A stretch of 64,000 nt of DNA, taken from positions 4,464,001-4,528,000 of the forward strand of contig NC_081396.1 in NCBI RefSeq assembly GCF_030684315.1, read 5' to 3'. The notes below the pieces were generated by a model. That model was not told the origin of the DNA, searched no databases, and saw only the letters and a list, made by a program, of their open reading frames with translations. Below, one piece after another: positions 1,346-46,689 of this stretch. Origin of the DNA: Stegostoma tigrinum (lineage: Eukaryota). Positions within the stretch are counted from its first letter, which is position 1, and every line of letters begins with the position of its first letter. A program made the position numbers and the translations under genes.

Positions 1346-1386
1346 TTGATAGAGTTTAACTTGCTTAATCCGACATTCTTTCCCAG

Positions 1387-1683
1387 TGACTCCGTCTTCG
1401 CCGACACTTTATGGTCTAGTCTCCTGTCGTGAACACAGCACTCATGACTCTGTGATTTTTGGATGCTTGGCGATGGACTACTCCCCTGATGTCACTACTG
1501 TGACCTGGAAGAAAGATGGGACGCAGATCACGAATGGATTTAAGACATACCCATCGGTGAGAAACAAGAAGGGAACTTATACCCTGAGCACCCAGTTAGC
1601 CCTGACCGGTGCAGCTGCGCATTGTGGAAAAGTCTCCTGTGAGGTTCGACACAGCGGGTCCGACAAGAGCAAAGAAATACAAT
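1387..1683 (+). CDS. IGHM: IgM Cmu1 exon (open reading frame)
   Basis: cccag|tg acceptor, t|gtaagt donor; TPSSPTLYGLVSC...FGCLAMDYSPDVTTVTWKKDG...TYPSVRNKKGTYTLSTQL...VSCEVRHSGS; both domain Cys, Trp and the light-chain Cys present. Confidence 0.95.
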
Positions 1684-1754
1684 GTAAGTGTTGTGGGAAT
1701 GTGGTAGACAGATAAGTGTGCTTTACATAAATACGGTCTGATTCATAACACCAT

Positions 1755-4380: not shown

Positions 4381-4414
4381 AAACAAGATAACTTACACGA
4401 TCTGTTTTCTTAAG

Positions 4415-4626
4415 GTTCATACGGTAGTGTCACTCCGACTGTTCTCCTTACTGTGAGTTCCAGTGAAGAAATCGAGAGCAGGAAAGTTGCAACCTTAGTC
4501 TGCTCAATCTTTCACTTGAATCCAAAGGAAATCTCCGTGGTTTGGTTGAAGAATGGAAGAGTGGTAAATTCTGGTGTCTTCACTTCTCCTGTGTGTGAAG
4601 CGAATGTAAACTTCTCACACCAGTAA
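4415..4626 (+). pseudogene. IGHM: IgM Cmu2 exon, 3'-truncated
   Basis: taag|gt acceptor; SYGSVTPTVLLTVSSSEEIESRKVATLVCSIF...VVWLKNG...FTSPVCEANVNFS then HQ* (TAA 4624-4626); second Cys, F/G strands and donor missing. Confidence 0.92.
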
Positions 4627-5198: not shown

Positions 5199-5504
5199 TT
5201 TCAGAGTGCCGTGATTAAACAGCTAAAATACTACCGCCACCAGTTGAACAGGTCTTACTGGAGGCCACGGTGACATTAACCTGCGTTGTGTCCAATCTTC
5301 ATTTTGAAGCCGACTTCACCTGGTTACACGACAAGAAGACTCTGAAATCAGAACTTGTTGACCAGTCCGGAGAGCATTCCGAAGGTGTGATCAGCAATTT
5401 AGATATTTCTACTGAAGCCTGGCTGAGTGGGGATACATTTGAACGCGTGGTGAACAATCAGTATCTACCGACTCCACTGAGAAACTCCATCCACAAAGAG
5501 AAAT
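5199..5504 (+). pseudogene. IGHM: IgM Cmu3 exon, disabled
   Basis: tgtag|tt acceptor, t|gtgagt donor; [32 protein letters not shown]...FTW...[32 protein letters not shown]; TAA 5216-5218, second Cys->Arg (CGC 5444-5446). Confidence 0.95.
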
Positions 5505-5949
5505 GTGAGTTAAGAAATGAAAGCACAAAGCATTTATAATTTAGATCCAGTTTCATCGATGGCATGTTTTGATTGGTATTAAAGTAGCTCCGTTGATGGC
5601 ATTGATGATACATTTCCTGACAAGAAAGATAAATAAAGAATGAGGGAAAAATCAAAACTCGATTAGCGGATATTCTGTCGAGATTATATTAAAAATTGGA
5701 AGAGAACTGGAGTTTTGTGACATAAACTCCAGTAATGACAAATGTGTAAAATTTCCGAGTTCTGGGCTAATGACATGCAGATGGCATTTGAACTTTTTTT
5801 TTGTAATGAATAGAACGGATACTATTCTACTACTTTAAAAAAAATGAAAGTGAATAAAATCCAAAATAAACATGGAATAGATGAAGATAATAAAATGTGA
5901 GGCTGGATGAACACAGCAGGCCAAGCAGCATCTCAGGAGCACAAAAGCT

Positions 5950-7075: not shown

Positions 7076-7468
7076 TGATAAATCCACTGGAGCCATCGGT
7101 GTCCATCCTGCTGCCAACGACATAAGAAGTCTCCGCACAGAGATTTCTTTCACTCACCTGTTTAGTGAGAGGCTTCAGGCCGCGAGAGATCTTTGTCAAG
7201 TGGACAACCAATGACAAGCCAATTAATCCCAGTAACTACAAGAACACCGAGGTGACGGCAGAGAGCAACAACACTTCATTTTTCTTGTACAGCCTATTAA
7301 CAATTGCAGCGGAGGAGTGGAGCCAGCGGTGCTTCTTACTCCTGTGTGGTGGGACATGAAGCGATTCCATTGAAGATCATCAGCAGAACAGTTGATAAAT
7401 CCAGCGGTGAACCGAGTTTTGTGAATATTTCGCTTGCACTGATGGACGCCATCAATTCATGCCAATGA
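7076..7468 (+). pseudogene. IGHM: IgM Cmu4 exon plus secretory tail, disabled
   Basis: tgcag|tg acceptor; [41 protein letters not shown]...[14 protein letters not shown] (+1 A at 7321) [48 protein letters not shown]; TAA 7123-7125; internal donor G|GT 7406/7407. Confidence 0.95.
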
Positions 7469-10284: not shown

Positions 10285-10412
10285 ACTCCAGAGATCATAA
10301 TTGGATTGAACACTCTGAGGATGATAACGGCAACATGTGGACAACTGCTTCTACATTCATTACCTTGTTCTTTCTGAGCATTTTCTACAGTGCTGCCGTC
10401 ACACTGGTCAAG
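10285..10412 (+). CDS. IGHM: IgM TM1 exon (open)
   Basis: atag|ac acceptor, aag|gttaga donor; (D)SRDHNWIEHSEDDNGNMWTTASTFITLFFLSIFYSAAVTLVK with intact antigen-receptor (CART) TM motif. Confidence 0.95.
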
Positions 10413-10551
10413 GTTAGACAAATGAAATCGCTTGCACCTCAAACAGGCCATTGTTGTTTGTGCAATCTGGTTGTGTGTCAATGAATTAAAATTAAAACCT
10501 GAATGCCCTGAGCATAAATATTTACATCTTTACCTGATCACTCTTTTTCAG

Positions 10552-14004: not shown

Positions 14005-15285
14005 TTCAATTCCATCTCCTATTCCCAACTCCTCCACCTCCGCCACATCTCCTCCCAGTATGAGGCATTCCACTCCCGCCCATCCCAGATGTTCACGTTC
14101 TACAAGGACCGCAACTTTCCCCCCACAGTGATCGAGAACGGCCTTGACTGCGTCTCCCACATTTCCCGCAACACATCCCTCAGACCCAGCCCCGCCACAA
14201 CCGGCCCAAGAGGATCCCCCTCATTCTTAGATACAACGCCGCCAAACGCTGGTTACAACGCATCATCCTCCGAAACTTCCGTCATCTGCAATCCGACCCC
14301 ACCACCCGAGCCATTTTTCCATCCCCAACCTTGCCTGTCTTCCGGAGAGACAACTCTCTCCGTGACTCCCTTGTCCGCTCCACATTCCCCTTCAATCCCA
14401 CCACACCCAGCACCTTCCTCTGCAACCGCAGTAAGTGCTACACGCGCCCCAACACCTCCTCCCTCACCCCCATCCCAGGCCCCAAGATGACCTTCCATAT
14501 TAAGCAGGTGTTCACCTGCACATCTGCCAATCTGTTGCACTGTATCCATTGTACCTGGTGTGGCTTCCTCTACATTGGAGAAACCAAGCTGAGGCTTGTG
14601 AACCACTTTGCAGGACACCTCCTCTCATTTCACAATAAACAACTGCACCTCCCAGTCGCGAACCATTTTAACTCCCCCTCCCCTTCCTCAGACGACATGT
14701 CTACCATGGGCCTCCTGCAGTGCCACAATGATGCCACGCAAAGATTGCAAAAACAGCAACTCATATTTTGCTTGGGACTTCTGCAGCCCAATGGTATCAA
14801 TGTGGACTTCACAAGCTTCAAAATCTCCCCTTCCCCCACTGCATCCCTAAACCAGCCCAGATCTTCCGCTCCCTCCACTGCATCACAAAACCAGCCCAGC
14901 TCGTCCGCTCCACCCACTGCAACACAAAACCAGACCACCCTGTCTCCGCTTCACTCACCTGTTCTTCCTCTCAGCCAGCCCTTCCTCCCACCACAAACCA
15001 CACCTCCATTTCCTACCTATTGCCTCATCCGACCTCCGTGACCTGTCTGTCTTCCCTGGACTGACCTGTCCCCTCCCTCCCTCCCCACCTATACTCTCCT
15101 CTCTACCTATCTTCTTTTCTCTCCATCTTCGGTCCGCCTTCCCCTCTCTCCCTATTTATTCCAGTGCCTTCTCCCCATCCCCATCTCTGATGAAGTGTCT
15201 AGGCCCGAAACGTCAGCTTTAATGCTCCTGAGATGCTGCTTGGCCTGCTGACTTCATGCAGCTTTACACTTTGTTGTTTTGGTTT
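14005..15285 (+). mobile_element. Penelope-like element 3' part (RT C-terminus, GIY-YIG endonuclease, pLTR)
   Basis: ORF 14331-15041: FTCTSANLLHCIHCTWCGFLYIGETK...HLPVANHF...GINVDF; same family as 5884-6988; hammerhead core CTGATGA...GAAACGTC at 15187-15214. Confidence 0.9.
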
Positions 15286-17394
15286 CAGTTCTCCAGCTTG
15301 TGGACACACGGGAAAGTAAATCAAGAAGCAAATGATTTTCTTGTCAGGTCATTGACATCTTAATTGTCTCTTCTCCAGCTCTACAAATGGACACATTCAA
15401 ATGGCTCAATTTACAAAATGTTTTTTTTCCTGTATGCACCTCTGACGACCTGTTCCTATTTCCACAGCACATAGTCTGAACTCAGAGTCAGGTGTCTCAG
15501 ATTGCAGTTCGGAAACTCTCGAGATGGCACCGGCTGTCACAAAGTCATCATGCTGTCACGGAAATGACATTTGACGTTGTTCTCAAACAAGATAGCTGCC
15601 AGTTGGTCCCGTGGGTGATACACGTGACCTGAGACCAATGATCCTGGTGCTTTGGCATCAACCAAATGTTTCCAGTCCTACTGCCTTTGACACACTCCAT
15701 CATTGGATGCAGTGGAGCCTTGTCATTCAGCCCCAGCGAACTCCCCGGGATATTACTGAAACTTCCCGCTCACCGGGTAATGTCATTCCTCCCCAAAATT
15801 CAGACGCATGATCTGCAACCCTCTGCGCATACTCCAGGTCACTGTGGGGCTTGGATGATTGATATCAGGTCCATGCCAAGAGGAAGACCACAGAGGGAAG
15901 AGGCCGAAGGGCCAGAGGCTCTTTTGAAACCAATCGGGAGAATGAAGTGTGAAGCTGAGCCTGTGTATCGTTCATTGATTGCAATTTTGCCTCATTTGGA
16001 GACCTAATTTGCCCGACACTCCATGGTAAAATTGGATCTTTCTGTTGGTGGATTTAAAAATGTAAATATCGGTGGTGATGAAGCTAGAATTTCCACAAAT
16101 ATCATTGAAATGAGGGAACGCAGCGAAATAATTTACAAACAATTAGAATACTACCTAGAAGAAATAAGCACACAGATAACATTGTTACATCATTCCAACA
16201 GAAGTCAAAAATTCAGAAGCAGAAATTGTACAAATGGTCATGTCAGCGAGCTGCAGACACAAGATCGATGAAGTGGGGATTTTCGTTCTCATTTCAAGTG
16301 CTGCGGACGAAAGAGCTTTTGCACAATTTGTTTTGCCTTAATTAGCACTGACATATTTTATCAGTGTAAACTTGCTTAAAACAATTTAAACAATTGATGC
16401 TTTGTGCGTTGTCTTTGAACAATATAAAGTGAGTGTTCATTTTTTCTTCCATCTATTTTAACTTTTGAACAGATGAGTGCAGTGACAGAATCTTCAAAAG
16501 TCAGATCTGAAGAACATGTTTTAATGGATGAGACTTGCTCATTTCAACAAAACAGGCATGAATAGATTTTTTTAAAATTAAAAAGAAAATAAACGAACTG
16601 CAATGCTACTTATCTGTCAGAAATGATCCATTAACAAAATTCCCAGCACAGCTGAGAGACCATTCAGTGCTGTGCTGTATTTGAGACATCGTGAAATGGA
16701 ACACAGTCAGTGCCAGTCGAGGAAAAATAATTGATAAAGTGAATCAGAACTAAATACTTAATAGGAATGTTTAACTTTGCATGAGTGCTGACTGTGCCGG
16801 CTACAGAATGTATACTATGAGAAGTGAATAATATTTTATTTTCGACATCAGCTAATGGAACAAGCTGCCGTTGTATGTTGTTTGTCCATGTCAACGCCAA
16901 ATGTTCGTGATCATTGGGAAAATCAATTATCGAAAGGCCAGATAGAAACATGGAGGCCAATTATATCCAAATCATGACACCACTTCCCCGGCCACACCCC
17001 ACCCAACAGTCCAACGACAAGAGAGACAATTATCATTTTGAACAAAATTAGAATGCAATGCCAAACTCACATTCAGCATGTTATTGGAAAAAGCCATCAC
17101 AGATGATTAGTCCAATTTAGCTCTCTGTTCTTCTATTGTCTCTGCAACGCCTTTATGTCTGAATTCAAGTAAACGATTTTTTTCTTTTCTTTGTTCTCTG
17201 GTCGTGTTTCATCGCTTTCGAAATTGCCATGCCATCAGTGAACAGCTAACGCCAAATTGAAATAGTTTGAAATTTCTCTCTTACCAGCTGGTGTTCATGT
17301 CAGACCGGAAAATGTGTTAAAATTTTATAATATTGAGCGAATCGTTGTTCACTTCAGATCGCAGAGTATTTGCAACATACATTATCCATTCAAC

Positions 17395-17610: not shown

Positions 17611-19939
17611 AATAATCTATGTGCTCTGAGGACAGAGAATGGAGAGAAGTTGTACAGAAAACAAAATTGTGAGAGAATCATCAGGACTCTAGGGATATGT
17701 CTCATTTGGATCAGTGACGCGTGGAGAGACAGAGAAAGTGTAATTTCCACAGCAACGGGATGTTTGAGCACTAACCATCATAGAGTTTCAGAGCAATGAA
17801 TTAATTTTCATATGCATTGGAGCCACAGTTCTGAATACTGGTTTCAGAGCATTGTGATATGCTTATTTAATAGGGAAAACAGAGATAATGTGAGTGTGTA
17901 AAGCTGGCAGAAGAACAATCGTCTTATCGAATGAGAGAGCTGCAAGACCTCGATTTGCAAGTAAAGAATGATATCTGTTTTCTGATTATAGAGATAGAGA
18001 GGGAAAAATATCAAAACGTACGAATAGAGGGACAGATACAAAATAAAAACAAGACAGGGACGAAGTGAGAGAGAGAGATGAACAGCACTTAATTTATTTC
18101 CTCAATAGTAGATGAGATTAATTTGTTCAGAAATTTTGAAACCTTCAGCAAGTTAAAGATCTGCTCTGGCAGAGACTGATGTTAATGCATCAAAAACATT
18201 CAGATTAGAAACGCTTAACTTTCCAGAATTTAATAGAACAGAACAGAAGATATGGAAGAATTATATGTCCATTTCGTACGTCGAGTCGTCTCTACCATTC
18301 GATAATGGTCTAAAATGAAACATTCCAACATTTTTCATTTGCCTCAGTTATATTGCGGTCAACTACAGTGACCCGTGCAAATTGGGAAAAAAAACTCCTT
18401 TGCAAAGTATGAACGTTTCCACTTTCAAACTACAGAATGTAAGAGCACGAAAGGAGATCACTGTACCTGTTGCACCTTCGCCAGGTCCGAATAAGAATGA
18501 CTGAGCTATCTCCATCGCCCACTGAACTCATCACTTTCTAAAGTATCCCCAGTTCTCTTCCGTTTTGAACCTCCAAAGGAATCCGCCTCCCCGAAACAAT
18601 CTTGACAGCATATTCCAAATCTTAACACTCTCTCAGTTAAAAAAAACCCTCGATCTTTTGCTGACAATTTTGCAGCTATGAGCCATGATTACTCAACTAC
18701 GATCCTCAGAGTTTGAGAGCAATGCATCTATCAACGTTTTTTTTCTCTATTCAGTAGTTCATTTGGACTAAAAACCGATGAACATGTGTTTTTGTGTAAT
18801 GTAGCTGCTTAAAGTCCCATATCTTTTGATTGTGAAAACTCGTGGTAATTTCTATTGGAATCGCAAAGGAGGAGAAGAACGTTTTTTTTAAAAAAAGCAG
18901 AATCAGAAGCGTTCTTTTCCTTTCTCTTACTCTCTATTCCTTATATTTTTTGCATTCCTCACTTTGTCTATTTCTCTCCGTCTCTTCCTGGGTATCACAT
19001 GTTCTCTAAGAAAACTGTATTAATCCTTGCAGGGATTGTTCTGCCGATTCATGTCTCACAGAATTTTGCTGCCCCTATCATCCTCACGATTTAAAATTGT
19101 TTTCTTTTATCCTGTTTTTTTTTTCGGATATTGCTGAACGTTGAATGATTAAAGGTGTCTTTCAGGATCGGTTAACCTATTACTTTTGATGTAATTGCAG
19201 GCCAGAAATTGGCGTTTTCAAATTCCAGTGTGACCAGGACTGAAATGCACTCTTCATGAATCGATTTACTCCCAAAACAGTTATAATCCAATCAGTGACA
19301 ATTTGTACATGCAGTCTGCACAACTTGTTTCATGGTGAATATTCTGCTCAAAACACTCTTGCTCATTTGTACATCTTACAGACTTAACAGTAAGAAACAA
19401 TCTGATGCCAGGCATATTGAAGATAATCTGCTCCCAACTCCCTCTGTTCTCTGCCCTTCTCCTTCGGAGTTACAATTGATTGCATGCAGTCACACAGTCC
19501 TTTGACAAGACCAGAGGAGATCATGTCGGCAACTGTCTTCAGACAGTGCTCAGGGAATAACAATGCATTCTTTATCCAACCATGAAAAAGTTGTTGCCGT
19601 TTGCTGAAATAAACCAGAATAAGCATGCATTTCAGTTAAGATTAAGAAAACGAAGCGTTTTAGACAAGGAAGTCTTTTTTTAAAATTGCCTTACTCTTCA
19701 TTTTTTCTGAATTTTCGAGCATGCATTTCCTCCGCTTGTTCAATGATTTCATTCAAACAATTAGATTTGGGACGAAATACTTTAATATCTGTTAAGAGTA
19801 GGAGCAAAGCATACGTCGTCAGCCGCCCTCATGCCATCACTTAGCAACATAATTGCTGATACATTCATGTTTCTAGTTCCACCAACTCATTTAATAGTAA
19901 TAGCTTTTCTTGTTTTTGTATCACTTAGATTTTACAAAA

Positions 19940-22900
19940 GACTTTTGCATGGGTTTCAGATTGAACTTGCCATTTGCGTACATAGTTAGCTTAATTGCAG
20001 AAAATGGAATTAGTGGCAGATGTTTTATTTCGGCCTCGAGGTTTGTGAATGGCAGTGTTCAACAGGGGTTGGTTTCGGGTCTTCTTTTTAGTTGTCATTG
20101 ATAAAAATGATTTGTTTGAGAAATATAGAAGGCACAGTAAGTAAGTTTTTGGATGACATGAAATTTGTTGTTTTTTGTGGACAGTGAAGAAGGCTTTCGA
20201 ATATCACAAAGGGAGCTTGATAAAATGGATCAATGGGCTGAAAATGACAGATAGAGTTTAGTCTATATGTGTGTGAGGTATGGTGTTTCGTTGCAACAAA
20301 CAAGGACATAGCTGATACAATTAATGCTCGAACAATATAGGGGACAAATCTCGGGAACCAGACACGTAATTCGTGAAAGTTTGTGTCACTTGCACAGGAT
20401 CATTTAAAAAGGCATTTGGCACACTTGCCTTCATTATTTAATCCTTTGAACATAGGGTTTGAGATGTTGTACAGGACATTGGTGAGGCCCCTGCTGGAAA
20501 AAAGGTCCCCAGTTGTGGTTCACCCAGTGATAAGAGGATATTATGAAGCTGGTGAGGCTTTCGAAGAGATTGATCAGGATGTTGCCGGGTGTGGATTTTT
20601 TGTCATTATTATTATTCACTGGAGCAGAGGAGGTTGAAAGGTGCCATAATAGAAGCTCGTAAAATAATGAGAGGCAAGGGCAGAGTCTTTGGCAGGTCTC
20701 TTTGCCAAAAGAAGTGGAATTTGGAGACTAGGCAGCATATTTTCAAAGTGAGACGGGAGATACTGAAAAAAAAAATGTCATGAAGCTTTTTTTTATCCAC
20801 GAGCCTGTTTTCATCTGGAATGAAATTCCGGCTGAAGTGGTGAATGAGGATAAAATTAGAATGCTTAAAATACATTTGGATGGGGATGTAAACAAGAAAG
20901 TTTCGAAGACATATGGTCCAGGAGCAGGGCGTTGGGACACGTTCAGCTTGGAATTATTTATGGCATGGATTAACTAGGCCGGAGTGTCTAATCTATGTGT
21001 CTCCAGAGCAAAAAAAGCATCTGCCTACCTACTTCTTTAAGCATTTAATGTTCCTTCCACTACTGTCTTCTGAATCAATGTTCCAAAGGTGAACGACTAC
21101 CTTGTCTCACTGCTAAGCAATAGCTGCCAATTTGAAAACCATTATCCATATTTGTGGATTGATGAAGCAGACAAAATATGTTTTCAGTGCAAACCTTATC
21201 AAGAGCATTCTGGAATGTGCAAACTTAAATCAAGTCACTGCTCATTTGTACCAGCTTCACTCCAACCTATCTTGATCAGACACTCCACTTTGTTAAGGTC
21301 AAAATCTCTCCTGAAGCATTTATAATTACATCCTATGTTAAAGCTGAAAGCCAAGCTCCGCACAGCTTGTGTGTCATAGCATCATCAATGCCCTCTAGAA
21401 TTAAAGCACATCATTGTTAACTTTCTGTTCAACTCATCTAGCAACAAAGATTAGCATCTCATTTGCCTTCTTGCCAGCTATCTGTGCCAGAATACTGACT
21501 TTTTGTGATTCGTGCACATGAACAATTAAATTCTTCGAAAACTACGCAGTTGTTCTCCGTTTTGTAACTTCCGGGTGTTTTCAAATCTTATATTGTTGCA
21601 CATTTTGCTATTGTCTGCAAACTTAACGACAATATCTTCGTTCAACTGACCAACGTCATTTATTTACGTTTTCAATATTTGAGCATCCAACAAAGTCAGA
21701 TTCAGCTTGTCACATCATTCCAATTCGGAAAATAAATGCCCCCTGATGATTTGTTATATTTTCCCCCGTCATCCAATCTTGTATTCAACATCGTATCCAT
21801 TCTCAACTGCCAAAGCTTTTATTTACCACGACAAACATGACAATAATCTCTGAATGTCGAAGTGCAGTAGCCTTAAGGTTTTCCTTTTTTCACGATTCAT
21901 TTTGCTTCTTCATGAAGCCCAACAAATTGGTCAAACATCATCTCCCATTGAAGAAGCCACGGTGAACCTTCCCTAGTGCTATGGATGTTGTCCATGGGCT
22001 CAGTGAGAACAAATTGGAGAAATACAGGTGCTGGACATCTGAATCATATACATAGAATAAAGGAGAAACTTAGCATGCCTGGCTGAATTTGTGGGAAGAA
22101 AGCAGAATTAGCAATTCAAGTCTTGTGGCTCTTCAGAAAACTGAGCTTTGGGAAAGAATAAATCGGCCGGAAACTTTACCACCGCTTTCAACCAACAAAT
22201 TCACGAAAGCAGTGTCAAACGTATGGTTATTGATGTTGTCAGGACATCAGATCAAGATTAATTTTCAGGAAGTGATTTCAAATTGAAGCCAGTCCAAACT
22301 GTCAACATTTTTCTTCTGGATGACCTATAGATTTTAGAGGTGCAGACTTGTTCTTTGAATGCTTTAACAGCAGCGTTGTTTGTTCTGTCTGTGTATTGGG
22401 TAATTTCCATTGTTAGTTCGGCATTTGTACTTTAAAAGAGTATTTAATGGTTCAAGGAATAAATTTAAAAAACATAATCAAGCATTCGACAAATATCGGA
22501 GCTGGATTGCAGCACATTTGGTAATGTGTATAATTCTGGTCTCTCTTCATTAGAAAATGCAGGAATGTAAAGCACAATATAAGAAAGATTATGCAACTGT
22601 GACTAGAATTGAGAGATAATAACTCACAGAAAGAAGTGTGTTGACTTGTGTTCCTTTCTCTACTAATGGGAAGACTAACGGTTAACTGGACTGATGTCTT
22701 TAAAATGTTTAAAAGATCTTATGTTGCGTACACAGAGGAGAACGTTGCAATTGAGGAAGATTCGAGAACTATAAATTTTAAAAATCAGTGGCACACAACA
22801 ATCGAATAAGATTTCAGTGGAAAAATTGTTTAGCCTTAGAACAGGAAAAATATGAATCTTAATGCAACAGTGGTGATTTGATTTGAAGAATAAAGTTGTG

Positions 22901-23050
22901 TTTTAAAGGGAACGATGCAAACTGTGGAGTGGGACAACGATGCAGGGTTTTGCTAATAAAATTGAGGAAGAGGTAGGAAGGATGTTTGTGGTAATTTCAG
23001 ACACAGGCATGAGCCAAATGATACGAACGAACTTTCACTCTTCTAACTTC
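19940..23050. mobile_element. Degenerate CR1 LINE relics (~19940-21000 +, ~21010-22000 -, ~22420-23050 +)
   Basis: LYRTLVRPLLE, SVQQGLVSG and WNEIPAEVV match CR1 ORF2 motifs seen in the better-preserved copies. Confidence 0.7.
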
Positions 23051-23231
23051 CACCTACTTCAGATAACATCATGAATTTCTGAATTGACACTACTTTGCTC
23101 GAATGTTTAAATCACTGATTTTGGCTGTGTTCACCTTGTGATCCACAGATGAGTGATGGGGTTTCTCTAGCTCTGTAGGATTCCTTGTTCATACAGATCG
23201 AGCTTTATCACTGACGATGTTTATTATTTGT

Positions 23232-23550
23232 TCTGATACCGTCAGTACCTCGGTAGATAGCCCGAGTTCGCAGTCTGAATGTTCAAATGCTGCGGTTCTG
23301 AAACAAAATGGCTTTCACGAAAATCCGCTTTTCTGATGTAGTCCAGCACTCGGACAAGTTCTACCACTTGACAATCCCGCAGCCCCTGTTGTCTGACTCC
23401 CCAGTCTATGACTGTTTAATGAGTCTCCCCATGATTGGACTCAGTGAAAGCCTTGTACAGTCGCCACGAGAGGTTTCTGGGTCACATCTGCTGCCTGCTG
23501 ATGGCGACAATAACAGCAGGCCATCCACTGAAGATGCAGCAGATGGCCGT
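23232..23550 (-). pseudogene. TCR alpha/delta-type V segment relic, leader apparently uninterrupted
   Basis: (ACG)AICCIFSGWPAVIVAISR / ADVTQKPLVATVQG / DWGVRQQG / RKADFRESHFVSEPQ / QTANS-AIYRGT (cf. D-x-A-x-Y-Y-C-A); several frameshifts. Confidence 0.55.
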
Positions 23551-23644
23551 GAGGGAAAAGTCCCTGAAGACAATTCAGACAAAGAGCATTTAAAGTTGGA
23601 TAATTCTGATTATTGCATTTGGAACGAGGAGTGAAACGGTTGTT

Positions 23645-24055
23645 GTTTGTTTTGTAATCTCTCCAAACTCTCCTTTCATTTTGGTAGAGAAAACAAACTC
23701 TGCAACCTGGCCATCACTGGCTGTATCCAGGGAACACAGATTCGTGAGGGTGAAAACATTAATTTTCGATGCGAAATTCCAGAAAGTCTCATGGACTATA
23801 GACTGCCAGGTGAAGAAATTTCGAATAATTGCAGTAACCTGATTCAACAACACTCAAAGTTAAGGATACACATGGTAAAGACTCTGAATCTATTCCATAA
23901 CAAAGGAAAATGGATATGTTTCAAGTACATAATGCGATGATGATGTTCAATGATATATATGGCGATAATCTGAAAGGATTGGCAAGTGGTTTCCTCGGAA
24001 ATCTTCGTCAGAAAATCGATTAAATATTCAACTCTATAGGAGTGCTTTGACAAAT
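23645..24055 (-). pseudogene. Antigen-receptor V segment relic with degenerate RSS
   Basis: ttcag|at acceptor; SKHSYRVEYLIDFLTKISEET...NVFTLTNLCSLDTAS; heptamer-like caaaatg (23683-23677) followed 21-23 bp later by an A-rich nonamer-like tract. Confidence 0.4.
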
Positions 24056-24484
24056 CTGAATTTTAAGTGCACAAAAAGCATTTGCTTTATTTAAGAGTGA
24101 CCCATCTCACGTCACTGTCATGTTTCAGTCAAAATGAACGACTGGAAGACAATGCCCACAGATATTTTGGAAGCCAGTCTTTCTGAAAAGATTAAGTTAT
24201 AATTTGGCATAAATTCCCTCATCATATGTTTGAATGATGTTTGCAATGCACCGACATAAATGGAGCAAATGCAACCTTCTTCAATCAGCACCTATTAATC
24301 TCTGTTGTTGAATGTTCGATTTTATCTCAATTCACAGCTTAACAAGAAAACGTTCAATAAGTCCTGCTTTCTGTACAGGTCACACGGCCTGTGCATGTCC
24401 CACTGTCCACTCCACTTACGTTTTTTTCCCAATGACAAAATGTTTTCTTTCGTCCAAGGTTCCTCTGGTTCCAGTAACAGGATA

Positions 24485-24905
24485 TCTCAGCCCACAGCAA
24501 TACACAACGCTGTCAGACGGCTGCAGCTCACTCATAGTGGAATTCCCCTCACTTCTGGAATTGGCCAGAAATAGCAAAAATCAAGCAACAATGTCAAAAT
24601 TCTGACAACATTCCCATATTTAGTGATGAGGATTCTTAAGTTTGGAGACTTTCTGGGGTCCTGAAGGTACAATTCCAAGTAATATGTACAGTCTCTTGAC
24701 AAACAAGTGAAATAAATAGCCAGTGCATTACCTTCAAACTGTACCACAATAACTGGCTCCAGCGAAATCGAATCTGCACAATTAATGCGGACAGAAATAT
24801 CGAAAGAAAATGTCATTCAAATGATGATGATACCCCCTGTTACCACGTGATTGCTTACATTGCCATTTGGAGAAAGAAAACCAAAGTGAAATTTGCAATA
24901 AGCAT
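24485..24905 (-). pseudogene. TCR alpha/delta V pseudogene (leader exon 24905-24859, V exon ~24784-24485)
   Basis: Leader MLIANFTLVFFLQMA|gtaagc; V: DSISLEPVIVVQFEGNALAIYFT...YYLELYLQDPRKSPN...KYG / NSRSEGNSTMSELQPSDSVVYCCGLR; frameshift, stop, lost acceptor, decayed RSS. Confidence 0.8.
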
Positions 24906-25159
24906 ACTACCTAGATTTCGGCATTTGAAGACACCTTAACTTTCAAGTTAAGAGAGTTACAGCAGTGAGGAAAGAGCAAATATAAAGACCACACATGTTT
25001 GCAGAATTTATGGTTGGTTTGTAAAATAAAGCTAATTGAATTTAAATTGTTTCAGCAAAGATTCAACAATGTGTCTTATCAGGCCTCCATACCCATTGGG
25101 TTAGTGTCGGGCAGAGACACAAGGTTTCACACCATCAGCTTTTATTCTTCCTCTTCTCC

Positions 25160-25450
25160 AACCAATGACATCAAACTGCTGCTCAGTTGACCTGAGCGTG
25201 GGAGCTAGAGGAGATTGCTTGACCAATCAAACCGACTCGAACATGAATAAACTCGTGTTTGAAAGAATTCAGTTCAGGCAGAATCCATGTATCATTTCTG
25301 TGTTTCAAGATTCATTCATTTGTCAACAGTGGATTAAAATATACTCAAAGCCACAGCGAGAAGCATTTTCTGAGCCCAATAATGCCGAAAGGAGTTTTTT
25401 TTTTGTCTTTAACGGAGACAAGTTGGATATTTATAGTTCGGAATTAATGT
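25160..25450 (-). pseudogene. Highly decayed V segment relic
   Basis: ...NE*ILKHRND...NSFKHEF...SHAQVN*AAV*C resembles V C-terminal half; in register with neighbouring Vs. Confidence 0.33.
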
Positions 25451-25599
25451 CGTTGTTGGACCTCCTCCATTTGGTGCAATGCTCACTGATCATGTGCAAC
25501 TCGCATGTGAATTCTTCCACAGGAATGTACTGAATTGTCAATGTGAGACCCTATAAACTGCCCTCAACAGAGTGCAGATGGGACACAGATACCTGAAAT

Positions 25600-25638
25600 A
25601 GTTATTGTACGAGCGTTTAACTCATTCGCATCACAGTC
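25600..25638 (-). promoter_or_regulatory. Recombination signal sequence, 23-bp spacer
   Basis: Heptamer gactgtg (25638-25632), exactly 23 bp, nonamer acaataact (25608-25600), directly after YYCVIWS; the first heptamer base is not C, so probably non-functional. Confidence 0.8.
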
Positions 25639-25665
25639 AGACCAAATTACACAGTAATAGTCAGT

Positions 25666-26757
25666 GCCAATCATCCAACCTAAACTTTGGGTCCACGATG
25701 TGGATGACACCTTTGTCATCACTAAACAAAACAAATTAGAGGAAACCTTCAAGATCATCAATAATACCCTTTACTGGCATAACATTCACAAAAGAGGAGG
25801 AAAACAAAAATAAACTTCCATTCCTAGATGTCACAGTCGAGCGAACAGCCAGTGGGGAACTTCAAACCAGCGTCTACACGAAAACAGCACATATGGACGA
25901 AATACTGAACTACAGGAGCAACTATCCAACACCCACAAACGAAGCTGCATTAGAACATTATTCATACGAGCCCCGACACACTGCAGCACAGAGGAACTAC
26001 GCAGAGCAGAGGAAAATCACCTATACAGTGTATTCAAAAAGAACGGATGCCCTACGAAAACAGTCAGCCGATTCCTCAGCAATAAACCCAAACAAACAGA
26101 CAAAACGGGCTCAGAAACCATACCCACTCTCCCCTGCATCAAAGACATTTCCGAAATGATTGCCAGACTACACGGACCTCTGGGCATCAGGGGAGCCCAC
26201 AAACCCACCAACACACTAAAACAGCAGCTATGAACTTAAAAGACCCCATACAGACAACAAATAAAGCGAATATCATCTACAAAATACCTTGCATGAACTG
26301 TGACAAACACTACATTGGACAAACAGGCAGACAGCGAGCCACCAAGATACATGAACATCTACTAGCCACAAAACGACATGATACACTATCACTCGTATCC
26401 TTACAAACATATGAGGAAGGACGCCACTTTGATTGGGACAACAAAACAATCCGAGGACAAGCCAAACAGAGACACGCACGAGAATTCCCAGAAGCATGGC
26501 ATTCCACCCGGAACTCCATCAACAAACACCTTGATTTGGAGCCAATCTACCATCCGCTGAGAAAAGGAACAGGAAATGACATCACCAACGAAAGGAAACC
26601 GAACCAGATAAATAGAAAGTGCGACATAACTCCAGTGCTTCGTCGGAGGCTCACTGATGATGTTACCCAGAATGGTGACGAAACTTCTGAAAACTAACCT
26701 TGCAGCTCGGCGAGCAAACGGACATCCAGAACCTCAACCTGAACTACAAATCTTCTC
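25666..26757 (+). mobile_element. Penelope-like element (second family), 5'-truncated
   Basis: RT motif LWVHDVDDTFVI, LPFLDV; GIY-YIG NIIYKIPCMNCDKHYIGQTGR...HEH; 10-bp TSD aatagtcagt at 25656-25665 and 26758-26767. Confidence 0.92.
26651..26690 (+). ncRNA. Minimal hammerhead ribozyme motif in PLE 3' repeat
   Basis: tca-CTGATGA-t-gttacc-cagaat-ggtgac-GAAACTTC-tga; stem I tca/tga, stem II gttacc/ggtgac. Confidence 0.65.
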
Positions 26758-27519
26758 AATAGTCAGTTGTGTCAGACATCAGCATCTCCGAGATATTCAA
26801 TTGGAACAATCAGTTTATCGGTTGGAGGGTATCAGAAAAGTATGCCTCAGAGAAATTTGCCTTTACTTCAGCAGAACGTCCCGAGTGCCTCCAGGCTTTA
26901 AACTCAGGCTGTCTACCTGGGCACTGACGGCGCCAGCTTAAGGAATCAGCATAATCAGAGACGGTGCACTTTCAAGTGACATCTTCTCCATCTGTCTTTG
27001 TTGTTGTTGAGAAACAGAAGCTCCACCGCTCAATTCTGGAACACAACGTTATAGAAAAACAGCGATTAAATATTGCATTGAACTGAATTGCAGGTGGGAA
27101 GACACGGCACTACGAAAACAAAGCGAGGATTGAAAGGAGAAAAGAAGACCATTTCGTGCACCAGGCCAATGTCTGTGAGTGTTATAACTAGCAACAACCT
27201 GTCTACATCAGCCTTTAATTTGATGAGCAAATCTCCACATCCCTTCCTCCGATGCACATTATTCTTGGCTCATTTTAATTTGCTATTTGTTATTCACTCC
27301 AAATGGCCACGGCCATGACAACCACATTTTACTTGATCTCTTGATGAATGAAATTCTCAAAAAGCCTTCATGGATCATTCTATGGCAAACAATGTGTTCA
27401 TTTAAATTTATCAATGTGGAATCTTTCTCCGGTGGGAATGTGTTATCTTTGTCCAGAACAGAAGATATGTCACCAATGAAATGTCACCAGTCTGGTTCCT
27501 CGTTCGTCTTCTCGCCAGC

Positions 27520-28570
27520 TCAGAAACTCAGGGGTTCATTATGACTGGCTTTATGAACAGCAGGTATGAGATGGTAAACTGTGAAAGTTATTCTGTTCTC
27601 TCAGACCAAATTCACATGTTGATATTCATGTTGATAACAATGAATTAATTGTTCATAAATCCGTTTATAGTAAACTACAACATGTACTTCATTGAATTTC
27701 AAATGACGCTACCTCTTGCCGAAGCATATGCTGCTATTGGTGCGATTGGAGAGAGTGCAGACTTTCTTCAAACGTTAGCATGGTGACTGAACAAGTTCTA
27801 AATAGAAAGAAGGTAGCTTTGAAAAGTTGTTAGTTGATTTCTGTAGTTTGAAGAATGTGTAGATTTTAAAATGAGTTACTTGTTATGAGATCTGCAGTTG
27901 TAAATAATAAATTTAGACTAACTGTCATGTTTTTCGGCAGTTAATGTGGCTTGAACAAAGTATCATGACATTGAAGTTGTTAAAATGAAGAATTGTGTTA
28001 ATGTTGAATAACATCCGAAGTCTCCATAGATTGGTTCATTGTTGAACATCGTCAGCAGGTGAACTCCAACAGCCTACTGCTCGTTTCTGCACCAGGTTCT
28101 GACATAAGATGTGCAGCAGTGAATGGAACAAGGACTGAGTCAAGAATTAAACTCAATGTTATTCTTTGAATATTTTCCATCTTCGAGCTGGATGGTCTTA
28201 AGTGAATCAGCTCACGTTGCCCTGGTATCAGCACCGAATATTCCCTTTAAAATATCTGTGCAATGACTTTTAACCTCCCTACGGGTGACGTAATGTGGGG
28301 AATAGACCAACAGTGCGATTATAACGGGTCACGCTCAGGGGTTTAATATGAATAGCTTTTTGAGCAGCAGATATGAAATGACAAACTGTGACAGCTATAT
28401 TGCTCTGAAAAACCAACATCACATGTTGATATTTACAACAAATTAATTATTCATTAAACCATTTATAATAAAATAATGCCGGTATTTTATTGAATTTCAA
28501 ATGAGGCTGCCACCTGTGGAAGCAGCTGCTGCGATTTAAGAGAGTGCAGACTTTCTACTAAGTGTTTGCT
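27520..28570. repeat. Diverged direct repeat (~27520-27785 and ~28330-28570)
   Basis: Shared ctcaggggtt, cacatgttgatatt, attgaatttcaaatga, gagagtgcagactttct. Confidence 0.85.
27860..28260 (-). pseudogene. TCR-type V segment relic
   Basis: RAT*ADSL / RPSSSKMENIQRITLS / SYVRTWCR / TSSRLLEF / YFVQATLTAENMTVSL; CRE-like tgacgtaa at 28285-28292 just upstream. Confidence 0.45.
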
Positions 28571-28789
28571 GGGAACGAGAAGAAATCTATTCTTAAGGAC
28601 AGAACTTTCCAATAGAAAATATCCACCTCAATTAAAAACACTGCATTTTACAATTTCTTTCATTGCATTTTCTGAGTTTATGATCACGATGGTCAGGAAT
28701 TTTGTCTTCTAGCAATATGGTTGAGAGTTTGGAGAGGTGTTTGGTCAGATTTTGACACTTCACTTGGTGGAAACCTGTTACAATGCAGG

Positions 28790-29290
28790 GGCATGTGCAT
28801 GCCCTTTGTCAGTTCAGTCTCAGTCTGACATGTCAGAATCCTGCAATTGTTCTGTATTGAAGCAGAGTCTTTCAAGTAAGTGGAGGACGTTTTTGAATTT
28901 AACAACAGACGCCACAATGGCAATGGGTTTATTTCATGAAATCTATTGCTGCAACTGAGTACAGATAGATGTGACCTCTTTGCCCAGCTTCACATTACTG
29001 ACGAAAGTTTCCTTCTGCAAGAGGAACAAGCGCTAAATCTTAGAATGCAATGGGAAAAATGTAATAATGTTTCCCTGCTTCAAAGAAATAGTATGGGTCA
29101 CTATGCAGTCCTGTAAACGAAAGGATACTTGCTTGTTTCTACATCAGAGGTGGCACAGGCCAGAAAATGATGGAGACTCTGGGAGAAAAATTAAGGGGTG
29201 TCAGCAGACAAAAAGCTGATTTATGTACAGGGAAGTAAAAATATTGAAAGGCAGTCGCGGAAGGTTGAGGTGATTACTCATATTAACATG
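28790..29290 (-). pseudogene. TCR-type V segment relic with leader and intron
   Basis: Leader-like ~29290-29230; tttacag| GLHSD / TISLKQGNIITF ... TSSTYLK / TEQLQDSDMSD. Confidence 0.38.
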
Positions 29291-29539
29291 GAGGGAATCA
29301 GTTGACGAGCCATTGAGAGAAACACATGAAGTGTCAGGGAGCCATGGCAACTGACAAATACGGAGAAGCAACGAACGTCACTATGCATGAATAGGAGAGG
29401 GGGAAAGGGTGAGTCACAAGAGATATACTGAGAGAAACGTTGATTGAAATGTCAACATGAATTTCAGGAAATGCAATAAAATAAAATGAAACATGGAAGT
29501 TGTGTAAATTCTGAGAGACATTAGAATTTCTCCGGTCGA

Positions 29540-30115
29540 CATAACAAGATTGATCCTATGTATTCATCAAGAATTTATGAATGTCAGCGTTTTAACTACA
29601 ATTTGGGATCTATCTGGGATCTATCTGCTTCTACTTCACACAAGTCATTCGACAATTCTAATGGACAGATGATGACATCACTGAATCGGTTTCGAAGTGT
29701 TTCAAAAAATGCAGNNNNNNNNNNNNNNNNNNNNNNNNNNNNNNNNNNNNNNNNNNNNNNNNNNNNNNNNNNNNNNNNNNNNNNNNNNNNNNNNNNNNNN
29801 NNNNNNNNNNNNNNNNNNNNNNNNNNNNNNNNNNNNNNNNNNNNNNNNNNNNNNNNNNNNNNGTACATTGAAACTTTTTTTTCTGTTTAGCCTAAGCTTT
29901 CTGTGTTAATCTTCATTTCAAGGCTACTGCTGGAGGTGGAAGATTTCTTTCTCTCTTGTACATTAACGAAGCATATGGTATTTTCTGACAATGCCTGTCG
30001 TTTAATGGTCACCACTTCACCTTTGATTCCTTGTGATTGCAGACTGACTAAAATCAAATTTGCATGTTGCTCTGGGCAAACTTTAAATCAGGATGAATAC
30101 CCAAATTTTCCTAAA
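29540..30115 (-). pseudogene. V segment relic(s) spanning the assembly gap
   Basis: KIWVFILI*SLPRATCKFDFSQS / GIKGEVVTIKR / YKRE before the gap; FFETLRNRFS ... PKL*LK after it. Confidence 0.36.
29715..29862. other. Assembly gap (N run)
   Basis: Run of n. Confidence 0.99.
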
Positions 30116-31009
30116 TGAATTGTTTGGGTGGTTGATCACTATGTTAGCGATTTCATAACCGATGGCGGGAATGTGCAAACACTATGTCATAGCTCCCTCT
30201 TTTGAGGATAAGAAATACAGAATCCTTTTTTACTTCTGCAAATACATTGAATTCTCAAGAAATCGACAGATTTTGCTGCCTGTCTATGTGAACTATTCTT
30301 ATCATCACTGTTCCTCGCATAATACATTTTAAACAGATGAGCGTATTTTCCAGGATTTCTTATCAACTTCAGCTTGAATTATCTTCATTCATTTTGATTT
30401 TTTTTCAATCAGTGTTTTAGAAACACCTGGCATATACATTCAAACTAATGTGAAACCACAGTGATCACCACAAATGGACATGTTCACACAAATAAAGAAG
30501 ATAGACAAAATTCTGTTTAAAAATATATCCTAAATACCGTGGAACTTCAATGAGGTCACATCGATGTGAAGCTTTCCCTCGTGTTCAGTGGGTTGTTACT
30601 TTTGTGTCAGTTGTAACTGCTCGCATGACCTGACTTTGGCATTGATAACTGGGAGATTAGTGGAAGAAACTGAAAATTGATAACCTGGAAAGTATTGTCA
30701 GTGCCTCATTGTTTGAGGTTAGAACAGAATCATCGAGAAACTTTCGGATTTCTAGTAAACAGTATGTTTGGTTAATAGTTTTGTCCGAGTATTGAAAAAT
30801 GCTACTGCTTTTGACAATTTCACCCATACCCCCTGGATTGTGAAGTTAGAATGTACTAGATATAGATTCATAAACATTCAGTGTGAGGTGCTTTATCTGC
30901 TCCAGGCAAAGGACAAATGCACAAGGAATTCTGGATCATGCACGATCACAAGGCAAAGTATCAGCTCCCGTTATAACCAAAACAAATGGTGTAGAACAGT
31001 AACCTGCGA

Positions 31010-31458
31010 CATGTCGCATGATAAACGGCTAAGGATCCTCGGATTGTACTCATTAGCGTTTAGAAGGTTGAGGGGAGATCTAATAGAAACGTACAAGATA
31101 ATGTATGGTTTAGAAGGGGTGGATGCGAAGAAGTTGCTTCGGTTAGTTGAGCAGACTAGGACCCGTGGTCACAGCCTTAAAATTAAAGGGGGTAAATTTA
31201 CAACTGAAATGACGTGACATTTCTTCAGCCAGAGAGTGGTGGGCTTGTGGAATTCTTTGCCACGGAGTGCAGTGGAGGCCGCGACGTTGGATGCCTTCAA
31301 GGCAGAGATCGACAAATTCTTGATCTCAGAAGGAGTCAAGGGCTACGGGGAGAGTGCAGGGAAGTGGAGTTGAAATGCCCATCAGCCACGATTTAAATGG
31401 TGGAAAGGACTTGATAGGCCCAATGGCCTTACTTCCACTCCTATGCCTTATGGTCTTG
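31010..31458 (+). mobile_element. CR1 LINE 3' fragment
   Basis: RLRILGLYSLAFRRLRGDLIETYKIM...TRGHSLK; tail cttatggtcttg. Confidence 0.9.
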
Positions 31459-31719
31459 TATCTCATAAACCCATTAATGCTGCTGCCATCTGTTGTGGAA
31501 CATTTCTTTCATTATTCTGCATCTTGGTTGAAACTTTTGAAAGCAAAGTTAAAACACGAGGGGCGTCCTTGGCGTCTCATCTTAAAAGCAGTTTCTACTG
31601 ATTAATAATCAAAGGCACCACATAATGATCAGTGTTCAAACCTAATCGACCATTTCACAGGAAGATTTATTTTCTCCACGCGCTCCTTTGTGAAGACAAC
31701 ATTTTGTTGATCCCTAAAT

Positions 31720-32340
31720 ACAGGTGCTTATTTTCTTTGGCCCTGACGAAATTATTGTGCATAGGTTTAGCTTTTTCAGTCTGTGGTTTTTGAGATGTAT
31801 TTTCGCCACCAAAAGTGATGGCAAAACCTCCATTTGTGGTGGAATGTTTATACTTCTTTAGAACAAATTTTGGAAAATCAATCTGTTCCACTCGAGGCAA
31901 CAGCACTTCGCGAAAGATGAGCTGCCTTGTAAAAGCCTCCGACTTGGAGAAGCACCTCATTTTCTTCTGTTTGTTTCTCCTGACACACAGTATCCAAATT
32001 ACACTCAGCTGAAGAATTGAATGAATTAATTTGCTTCAGCCATGTCTTTCACTGAATCAAAAATGCCTTCACTGCAAGATAAAGTGTGACGCCGGAAGAA
32101 CAGAGCAGGCCAAGCAGCATCTCAGGAGCACAAAAGCTGACAATGAAGGGTCTAGGCCCGTAACGTCAGCTTTTGTGCTCCTGAAATGCTGCTTGGCTGC
32201 TGTGTTCATCCAGCTGCACACTTTGTTGTCTTGGATTCTCCAACATCTGCAGTTCCCATTATCACTGCCTTCACTGCAGGTGTGTTTTGCACATGAGTCC
32301 AGACCCACAGCAGCGCAGTTGATACTGATTTGCTTTGTGA
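31720..32340 (-). pseudogene. TCR-type V segment relic (leader ~32340-32292; V exon from 32008)
   Basis: Leader-like STALLWVWTH; cttcag|ct acceptor; ECNLDTVCQEKQTEENEVLLQ / FPKFVLKKYKHSTTNGGFA / ISKTTD*K; mini-PLE in the leader intron. Confidence 0.5.
32077..32265. mobile_element. Miniature palindromic Penelope pseudo-LTR element
   Basis: Opposed pLTR ends plus tail; 13-bp TSD tgccttcactgca at 32064-32076 and 32266-32278. Confidence 0.9.
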
Positions 32341-32989
32341 TGCGGCATCGCAGCGACTCAGTTAAAATTGTGATTGCTAACAAACGTTGCTCTTGTCCAT
32401 GATTTCAACATCCATGAAGCAGCAAGTAAATTCATAATTTGAGTAACTGGCCCAGCAAAATTCTCAGCACTGAAATCTGTCGCAATTATTTTTTCGAGTA
32501 AGCTGCAATTAATCAACAGCCATATGTACACTTTTTGTTTGTTTCCAAAATAATTGTTGTTTATTTTACCATGTAAATATTTTCTGTCCTTTTTTCATAC
32601 ATTTACGTTATATTTTTATTCCCTTGCTTCCTCTTTACTTTGTTGCATTTTTGATTATTCCTCTTACTTTCCCTTCATGTTCTGTTGGAAATGTTTACAG
32701 AACTTTGTTTTGGACAGACTTCATTTTTCAGGAAAATGAATGTTTTTAAAAACAGCAACAGTTTTCCAAGCACAAAATACAATTCTCTCAAGGTTAAATG
32801 TTTCACAAAATTTCTCCGACAATATGACCTTGTTTTGAATTGAAATGCGAACTTTCTAGTTCCTCCAATTTCTCAAACAGATTGTCTCAGTCTTCTTTTC
32901 CCGCATAACATAGGAGTGATTTGATCCATTCTCAGAGAATATGTGGGCAGGCTTGGTGTATCAGTTATTAATTAATCATCGTGGCGTCG

Positions 32990-33298
32990 ACAGTTCTGCT
33001 GTCAGTGGCCACACTGGTGTAATATTCATCAGTGTAATTTAATTGTCGTTCAGTTTCCTGTCAATCACACCGATGTGCTGTCTCTGTTTTTGTCTTGCCC
33101 TCCATAGCTGAAGACAGTCTCCCTGGTTGACAGTTGATTTCACCTTTGACCAACACGTGCCCATTTCTGGTCAGAGCTGAAAATAAACTATTGCACTTTG
33201 AAAGCAGCATCTCGTTCTTGTCCGCACACACACCAACATCAAATTTATGCTGTTATATTCTGTAATTGAACACTGGAATAAACTTTTTAGCATGTGGC
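32990..33298 (-). pseudogene. Possible V segment relic
   Basis: ctgcag| acceptor; ~300 bp ending ETERQLNYTDEYYTSV (cf. ELQLxDTAxYYC). Confidence 0.3.
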
Positions 33299-43466: not shown

Positions 43467-43558
43467 GGCGTAAGAGGAGAGTATGGAGCTGATGGTGCAA
43501 GGTTCAGTGTTGGTGCTCATTGAGGCTCACATTTCAGTCCCAGCCAATTCACCACAAT

Positions 43559-43594
43559 GACATCACAATCCTCTTGTGATGTCCAACTTTGCAT
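43559..43594 (-). promoter_or_regulatory. Palindromic TGATGTC pair plus octamer-like ATGCAAAG, candidate lymphocyte promoter
   Basis: gacatcacaa-tcctc-ttgtgatgtc perfect 10-bp inverted repeat, ctttgcat 3 bp away, ~95 bp upstream of the ATG at 43466. Confidence 0.35.
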
Positions 43595-46500: not shown

Positions 46501-46689
46501 AAGTATCAGTACCCATGAACGATTCAGTAAAACAGACGGAAGCAGGTATGAGTGGGCCTGAACAAATCGTATTCTATCTTTTTCCATTAAATGATATTTT
46601 ATTGTTTCATTGATGTTATTCATGTCAGTCCACAGCTCCTAACTGAACACCAACACGAACAGAAAGGCGAAAATGTCATATGCGCCGAG

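Follow-up and report, generated by a model that had tools for sequence, protein, structure and literature searches.

Decayed TCR alpha/delta V genes within a repeated IgM unit of Stegostoma tigrinum

How do TCR alpha/delta-type V genes come to lie behind the constant exons of an IgM cluster, how many of them are there, and do they play any role in that place? These questions are raised by a stretch of 64,000 nucleotides of Stegostoma tigrinum (assembly GCF_030684315.1, contig NC_081396.1, positions 4,464,001 to 4,528,000 of the forward strand), which is referred to here as the window and within which all feature coordinates are given. Its span 23232..33298 comprises three TCR alpha/delta V pseudogenes, designated V-A, V-B and V-C, and a single leader-only stub.

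V-A (23149..23426, plus strand) carries a 20-nt and a 1-nt deletion as well as stops, and is matched at E 2e-27 by profiles built from V sequences of the same genome. V-B (24483..24788, minus strand) shows a 1-nt deletion and has lost its splice acceptor; its leader exon (24945..24996, minus) is without a donor site, and the gene shares 69% identity with a paralogue that is intact (blastn, E 9e-43). V-C, belonging to the V-A family, reaches from 27035 to 25639 on the minus strand and is divided by a 1.09-kb repeat into a 5' part with a net 10-nt deletion (26758..27035, minus) and, beyond the insertion, a 3' end reading TDYYCVIWS (25639..25665, minus), its identity to paralogues being 66-68% (E 2e-33). 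The two segments that the sequence-only reading had regarded as clear TCR alpha/delta-type Vs on the minus strand (24485-24905 and 25600-27152) are thus borne out by homology as V-B and V-C. The intervening repeat (25666..26757, plus) is a high-copy element with a GIY-YIG-like frame (Atlas GIY-YIG 0.94) and a 10-bp target-site duplication; 7195 candidate copies occur genome-wide, the best dispersed ones being 89-93% identical, and a Pfam search of the repeat gave no match. We presume it to be likely of the Penelope type. The stub (27771..28680, minus), having no V exon, preserves what preceded the exon in a V-B-family gene, namely its upstream region and its leader (ATG at 27928), and aligns for 974 nt, at 61% identity, with upstream sequence of an intact counterpart (E 6e-68); the tract 27.5-28.7 kb holds the promoter and leader of a V gene minus its exon, together with an upstream segment in duplicate. 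Leader exons could be defined for V-B and the stub, V-A and V-C having family-homologous upstream DNA without a defined leader. Outside the span, a strongly decayed fourth TCR V relic, V0, is located at 16214..16491 (minus; nhmmer E 3e-4 with a profile and 4e-8 with a single V, the orthologous copy reaching E 2e-15).

The V exons of the relics show homology to the locus's own TCR alpha/delta V families (E 1e-20 to 1e-43 by blastn, tblastn and nhmmer). In the evolutionary tree, which took in no named NARTCR-V reference, V-A/V-C and V-B fall in two TCR V families with support of 100/100, both apart from IgM VH, other IgH-like Vs and IgL; the IgM VH, a V at 0.39 Mb and the IgH-like Vs at 1.05-1.19 Mb, the last of which we take to be TAILV, form a separate clade. 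The relics accordingly do not group with IgH Vs or with the IgH-like Vs of the TCR locus. As judged from their sequences, none of V-A, V-B and V-C combines an open frame with splice sites as a functional TCR V does, every copy bearing frameshifts and stops. Pfam recognised no V-set domain when given the single open frames of V-A and V-B, since they are too broken, and their homology comes from paralogues of their own genome.

RSS remnants are found behind all three V exons, those of V-A and V-C with a 23-bp spacer, and in the window each of them is without CAC. That of V-A (23427..23465, plus), recognised in a six-copy alignment against intact family RSSs, has a decayed heptamer and nonamer, CCCCATG / ACAGTCGCC; that of V-B (24445..24482, minus) lacks CAC in all six copies. 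Behind V-C (25600..25638, minus), the window and its twin copy read GACTGTG-23-ACAATAACT, the essential CAC therefore being lost, whereas the other four copies have CACTGTG-23-ACAATAACT or a one-base variant of it; the nonamer is identical to that of intact family members. V-C is hence the sole relic with a plausible 23-RSS, in four of six copies. The 23-RSS ascribed earlier to V-C stands as far as the 23-bp spacer and its position (25638-25600) are concerned, but not for the heptamer in the window, and a strict scan of the span requiring CAC found no V RSS.

The IgM constant region does lie upstream of the relics, as had been read, all its exons being on the plus strand. It comprises CH1 within an open frame (1353..1715; Pfam C1-set, E 1e-14), CH2 shortened by a deletion of about 1.45 kb (4414..4617), CH3 with Arg in place of the second cysteine (5219..5539), CH4 with the secretory tail, bearing a premature stop at 7123 and a frameshift near 7323 (7090..7465), and the transmembrane exon at about 10.3 kb (10310..10430, approximate ends). 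The VH, D1, D2 and JH of this cluster, positioned 8-10 kb upstream of the window, have RSSs in the layout V23 / 12-D1-22 / 12-D2-12 / J. VH, D and J appear intact; a functional cluster, however, has intact VH, D, J and CH1-CH4, and with CH2 truncated and CH4 interrupted by a stop and a frameshift this one is a pseudogene.

On the chromosome, the TCR V field is divided in two by 17 IgM-type clusters standing in one block, to which the window belongs. The relic V families are present on both flanks of the block, often as a matching tail-to-tail pair, and intact minus-strand TCR Vs follow just past the array at 5.15-5.17 Mb. The TCR D-J-C core, 3.5 Mb from the window, occupies 0.84-0.96 Mb on the minus strand and contains 58 J-alpha, 8 J-delta, one D-delta and two C exons, the alpha and delta labels resting on gene layout; a TCR chain model from the whale shark shares 75% identity with the C-delta exon. 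A PDB search with the C-alpha exon was not diagnostic, and one with an intact family V returned mainly antibody and some TCR V domains, from which no classification was drawn. Minus-strand Vs face this minus-strand core, so that their "inverted" orientation is explained without any link to IgM. The two alternatives offered by the sequence-only reading—an IgM cluster inside the TCR alpha/delta V field, or TCR Vs co-duplicated with an IgM cluster—prove compatible and true together, the same V families standing on either side.

Evidence for the co-duplication comes from the neighbouring clusters. The IgM cluster and the relics form a unit of about 100 kb present in six tandem copies, a count that takes in a 99.8% identical twin unit (a putative duplication). 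The window aligns with its sister units over tens of kb, and V-B and V-C each occur six times at a spacing of about 100 kb, 86-100% identical; the relics thus recur at other IgM clusters, as had been suggested for checking. The lesions recur as well: the 20-nt and 1-nt deletions of V-A in all five copies that keep the exon, and the 1-nt deletion of V-B and the net 10-nt deletion of V-C in six of six. Divergence to the oldest copy amounts to 8.6-10.9% in exons versus 9.5-11.5% in spacers, and in three mid-distance copies to about 5.6% versus 6.6% (hand-pooled, the comparisons not being independent). Lesions common to all exon-keeping copies, together with an exon divergence close to that of the spacers, indicate that the V relics were likely already dead before the unit was duplicated. 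The flank of V0 was found in a genome search at 14 of the 17 IgM-type clusters, in both arrays, and other IgM clusters hold different, paralogous V relics in the corresponding interval. A look-alike trio behind a seventh cluster was rejected as orthologous to V-A/V-B, its identity being 61% versus 77-80% for orthologous flanks. As a side observation, contigs of four runs of one sample, possibly the source sample, cover 26-28 of the 30 bins of 22900-25660 with neither joints nor loose ends; given that possible origin they lend no independent support, and they have no bearing on the reality of the 99.8% twin. A look-up of RNA holders listed none, which speaks neither for nor against expression.

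The following history is proposed. A single ancestral IgM cluster would have been located among the TCR V genes of the field; duplication would have acted on this cluster along with TCR V cassettes in a tract downstream of it, which likely numbered eight or nine genes (a reconstruction from pairwise alignments of four regions only). Unequal crossing-over then likely expanded the unit into two divergent arrays, the redundant V copies decaying and each lineage losing different parts of the tract; the repeat, whose site is empty in the oldest of the six copies, would have entered V-C once that copy had split off. It is very probable that the three frameshifted pseudogenes and the stub, carried in a unit that the TCR V field contains six times over, are passengers, likely neutral and without any role at present. 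Two observations sit less easily with neutrality, namely the lower exon than spacer divergence in the three mid-distance copies and the family-typical V-C RSS in four of six copies.

A larger number of segments had been proposed, about ten every 0.5-1.5 kb and uniformly on the minus strand. When the span is searched with profiles made from 39-68 V sequences of this genome, no more than three V exons emerge, all within 23.1-27.1 kb, and V-A is on the plus strand, so that neither the number nor the uniform orientation holds; three supported segments come close to the one or two at which the array was to be given up. That an array of about ten members is nevertheless real, six or seven of them being too decayed, or from unsampled families, to score, is most improbable. 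It could draw on a mild surplus of short V-like motifs in 27.1-33.3 kb (17 versus 10.6 +/- 3.0 in shuffles), on the existence of one exon-less stub and on the likelihood of more Vs in the ancestral unit. Of these motifs, however, 13 of 17 belong to the loose pattern L.I..[LV] at scattered positions, and common repeats make up parts of the interval, in which the profile search revealed no V exon at E<=0.5 either in the window or in its five sister copies (a reversed-window control gave nothing below E 0.02). Moreover, profiles from which the family concerned had been left out still recovered V-A, V-B and V-C (E<=0.01). The stub and the duplicated segment at 27.5-28.7 kb may perhaps have been counted as Vs. 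Weak tblastn matches elsewhere in the window (12281-12358, 18350-18457 and 42261-42488; E 0.01-0.04) were rejected, a reversed control having reached E 0.014.

The other alternatives assign the segments a part in recombination. The suggestion that a TCR V could be joined to C-mu by inversion is formally allowed by geometry and the 12/23 rule, the 5' 12-RSSs of D1 and D2 and the V-C RSS being some 34.5 kb apart in inversion geometry, and the opposite chimera, in which TCR-delta carries an IgM/IgW V, has been published (PMC5931798, PMC12227049). Here it fails, with CAC lost in the window and an inversion join yielding no product, since every copy of the Vs is frameshifted and C-mu is a pseudogene; the minus orientation, besides, fits the TCR J-C core, and V-A faces the opposite way. 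It is therefore extremely unlikely that these segments make such chimeras now or that their ancestors did. The V-C 23-RSS might instead be a live RAG substrate in the four copies with CAC, inversion to the D1/D2 12-RSSs producing non-productive alleles and so acting as a cluster-silencing decoy. The family-typical nonamer, the inversion geometry and the open CH1, CH2 and CH4 in three of the four clusters keeping CAC would agree with this; it is still very unlikely, as 16 bases can survive at 6-11% divergence without selection, the window and its twin copy have lost the RSS, and shark Ig rearrangement is described as within-cluster only, among segments 250-500 bp apart (review PMC5192425). A wider reading, in which RAG would pair the 23-RSSs of TCR Vs with the 12-RSSs of IgM Ds as well because the IgM clusters amplified within the TCR alpha/delta V field—the V-C RSS serving as decoy in four units and the intact Vs at 5.15-5.17 Mb giving TCR-V/C-mu antibodies—is likewise regarded as distinctly unlikely; if true, a TCR V domain on C-mu would mirror the IgH-V/TCR-delta chains already known. 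The relics demonstrate no new receptor type or function.

Neutral passengers of this kind have a counterpart in the mammalian TCR and Ig V loci, where duplicated homology units carry pseudogenes along. Birth-and-death decay of Vs in tandem cassettes is common to both, but the duplicated unit here is a whole antibody cluster with the V genes of another receptor.

In elasmobranchs, an antigen receptor complex (AgRC) linking IgM/IgW/IgNAR clusters to TCR alpha/delta has been described, with TCR alpha/delta-type V exons between IgH clusters (Flajnik et al. 2025, PMC12227049); for the great white shark and the stingray, its table S1 places TCRa/dV genes of either orientation, including 'pseudo' ones, between IgM clusters. 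The presence of TCR Vs, including pseudogenes, among IgM clusters, as seen here, is thus already known, and the co-duplication history is a modest addition: that study relies on NCBI gene models, and its sections 6 and 15 and table S1 describe neither relics as part of an IgM unit nor shared lesions. Shark IgM miniloci are V-D-D-J-C-mu clusters separated by over 100 kb (review PMC5192425), to which the V23 / 12-D1-22 / 12-D2-12 / J layout and the spacing of about 100-116 kb correspond; unlike in that description, the spacer between clusters is here a decayed TCR V field and the cluster a pseudogene. The chimeric IgH-V/TCR-delta rearrangement of sharks (Criscitiello 2010 and Deiss 2019, cited in PMC5931798 and PMC12227049) also depends on the physical interleaving of Ig segments with those of the TCR and on matching 23/12 RSSs, but it brings a live VH to TCR D-J-C, whereas here dead TCR Vs adjoin IgM. 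The literature searched, most subscription papers being outside its scope, listed no report of TCR V relics duplicated along with IgM units, nor one of TCR-V/C-mu chimeras.

The V relics may serve as fossil markers for the origin of IgM clusters. The V0 flank at 14 of 17 clusters indicates that most of the IgM clusters here descend from one cluster already situated in the TCR alpha/delta V field, whose halves the amplification of IgM likely drove apart by about 2 Mb of antibody genes; the published Ig/TCR linkage is thereby supplied with a concrete history. In such an arrangement, the VH-to-D-delta rearrangement described as 'trans' could be in cis, the minus-strand array using deletion and the plus-strand one inversion.

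Searches with the intact V genes of the window's own contig (C55) indicate that the relics of TCR alpha/delta-type V genes in the span 23232-33298 are real, fewer than claimed in the sequence-only reading, and non-functional. Three V exons score clearly: V-A on the plus strand (23149-23426; 70% to L077, another stretch of the same genome, E 2e-36), V-B on the minus strand (24788-24483; 69% to L051, E 9e-43) and V-C, also minus (66-68% identity, E 2e-33), the last being interrupted by an insertion of 1092 bp (25666-26757), flanked by a 10-bp target-site duplication and absent from the oldest sister copy. The insertion is a high-copy repeat with a GIY-YIG-like frame, a lead only, its Pfam search giving no match. 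At 27771-28680 a V-B-family gene is reduced to a stub of leader and upstream sequence, its exon being gone, and a fourth, older relic, V0, lies beyond the span at 16491-16214. Repeat-derived frames are seen in the window at 5888-6989 and 14008-15275, as are CR1-like LINE reverse-transcriptase fragments at 47827-49633 and 60160-61955.

Profiles built from 39, 53 or 68 V sequences had no match in 27.1-33.3 kb of the window, and the 39-sequence profile drew a blank in the equivalent region of the five sister copies, too. This blank is informative, since profiles built without a relic's own family, or without all three, still recovered V-A, V-B and V-C (E<=0.011), a far more decayed V being nevertheless able to escape them. 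Short V-like motifs in the same region show a mild excess (17 vs 10.6 ± 3.0), a single loose pattern accounting for 13 of them. The array of some ten V segments, all on the minus strand, is therefore unsupported, V-A itself being in plus orientation.

The DNA tree (59 rows, using 49 of 68 references, some near-duplicate and broken rows omitted, and sampled without NARTCR V) puts V-A together with V-C in a single TCR V family and V-B in a second one (100/100 each), with V0 joining a third group that takes in the Vs nearest D-delta (96/95). A whale-shark gene model combines a V of the latter group (77% to L068) with a C-delta-type exon. The IgM VH and IgH-like Vs form a separate clade. The IgH-like V genes near D-delta (L023, L115-L117 and L119; C55 1.05-1.19 Mb), which are probably TAILV, have a clade of their own, the 23-RSS of L023 being canonical.

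The closest named proteins are those of Chiloscyllium punctatum and Rhincodon typus, which makes a carpet shark the likely source. The contig C55 (16.4 Mb of a 3.2-Gb genome) carries the TCR alpha/delta core on its minus strand: two C exons, located at 844 and 947 kb, 58 12-RSS-bearing J segments at 851-916 kb (the J-alpha field, counted within a scan of 850-970 kb), eight J segments at 951-960 kb and one D segment at 961 kb, named alpha or delta from their layout. The interval separating C-delta from the J-alpha field has three identical 23-RSS-like sites (923074, 928718 and 934013) in ~5.5-kb tandem repeats, and a V exon was found next to none of them. TCR-type Vs, for which mixed orientation is normal, occupy 0.97-2.30 and 4.88-5.80 Mb, with further ones at 9.10-9.18 Mb; there, over 8 Mb away from the D-J-C core, L007 and L014 contain open exons, one with a 23-RSS. 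Within 3.06-4.87 Mb, 17 V matches (10 minus, 7 plus) are each paired with C1 exons, which are present at 8.07 Mb as well; all 10 translated matches are IgM-type VH, most of the seven untranslated clusters being assigned to this type by position. The window, C55 4464001-4528000, starts just past the VH-D-D-J of the third plus-strand IgM cluster. Tail-to-tail pairs of V-A-family and V-B-family genes, ~1 kb apart, recur in the TCR V field on either side of the IgM block (L047, L049, L050, L053 and L060).

V-B and V-C exist in six copies each, one per plus-strand ~100-kb unit, from 4.28 to 4.80 Mb. The window aligns over tens of kb with the preceding unit at 99.8%, with three others at 92-93% and with the oldest at 84-94%, and the V0 flank is found at seven clusters of each array, 14 of the 17 in all (75-100% identity). 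At the seventh plus cluster and both minus clusters checked, the same interval is filled by different V relics; none was seen behind a third minus cluster (30 kb checked, 3.03-3.06 Mb). With 61% identity, against 77-80% for orthologous flanks, orthology of those relics was ruled out, and by sequence comparison they are classed as paralogues. The order of flanks held in common, in four regions, suggests that the founding IgM cluster would have had eight or nine V genes behind it, forming an ancestral tract trimmed differently in each lineage. C55 4.35-4.56 Mb (the window, L033-L034, L012/L013) is a ~104-kb tandem duplicate (99.8-99.9% identity) with its ends within IgM units, the VH matching the next unit, and the C region together with the relics matching the one before. 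Either the duplication is very recent or a haplotype was left uncollapsed. A non-coding block at 41835-46642 of the window is shared by plus- and minus-array IgM units (72-80%), its neighbours being deleted; it is conserved no more than IgM introns and contains no V matches exceeding the control.

The lesions are shared among the copies: V-A has 20-nt and 1-nt deletions in all five copies still having the exon, V-B a 1-nt deletion and V-C a net 10-nt deletion in six of six. Exons diverge from the oldest copy by 8.6-10.9% and spacers by 9.5-11.5%; from the three mid copies, the exons are slightly lower (about 5.6% vs 6.6%, computed by hand). No V RSS of the window retains its CAC; in four other copies the V-C RSS reads CACTGTG-23-ACAATAACT or a one-base variant, its nonamer being that of intact family members. 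The window's IgM cluster and its twin in the preceding unit are pseudogenes with a truncated CH2 and a stop and frameshift in CH4, the former also lacking the second Cys of CH3. On a CH1/CH2/CH4 basis, four of the remaining five plus clusters have these exons open and one has a CH4 stop. The minus orientation of the relics matches the TCR J-C core. The relics are very probably dead passengers of IgM cluster amplification within the TCR V field. The proposed joining of such a V to an IgM D by inversion is geometrically possible, because the 5' 12-RSSs of D1 and D2 lie 34.3-34.7 kb from the V-C RSS, but it could only yield a dead allele; shark Ig rearrangement is reported in a review only inside clusters (PMC5192425).

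The arrangement is already published, the present case being a further instance: Flajnik et al. (2025; PMC12227049) describe the linkage of IgH clusters to TCR alpha/delta, V exons of TCR type lying between these clusters, and pseudo-Vs adjoining IgM clusters, and chimeras of IgM/IgW V on TCR-delta are cited by Ott et al. (2018; PMC5931798). A literature search with incomplete coverage of key papers found no report of co-duplicated relics or reciprocal chimeras. What the relics add is a useful duplication history. On another contig, C11, a large cluster at 96.0-97.4 Mb (L001, L002, L009, L017, L028 and L029) consists of VJ-type exons that are germline-joined and lack an RSS; these are likely Ig-superfamily genes that do not rearrange.
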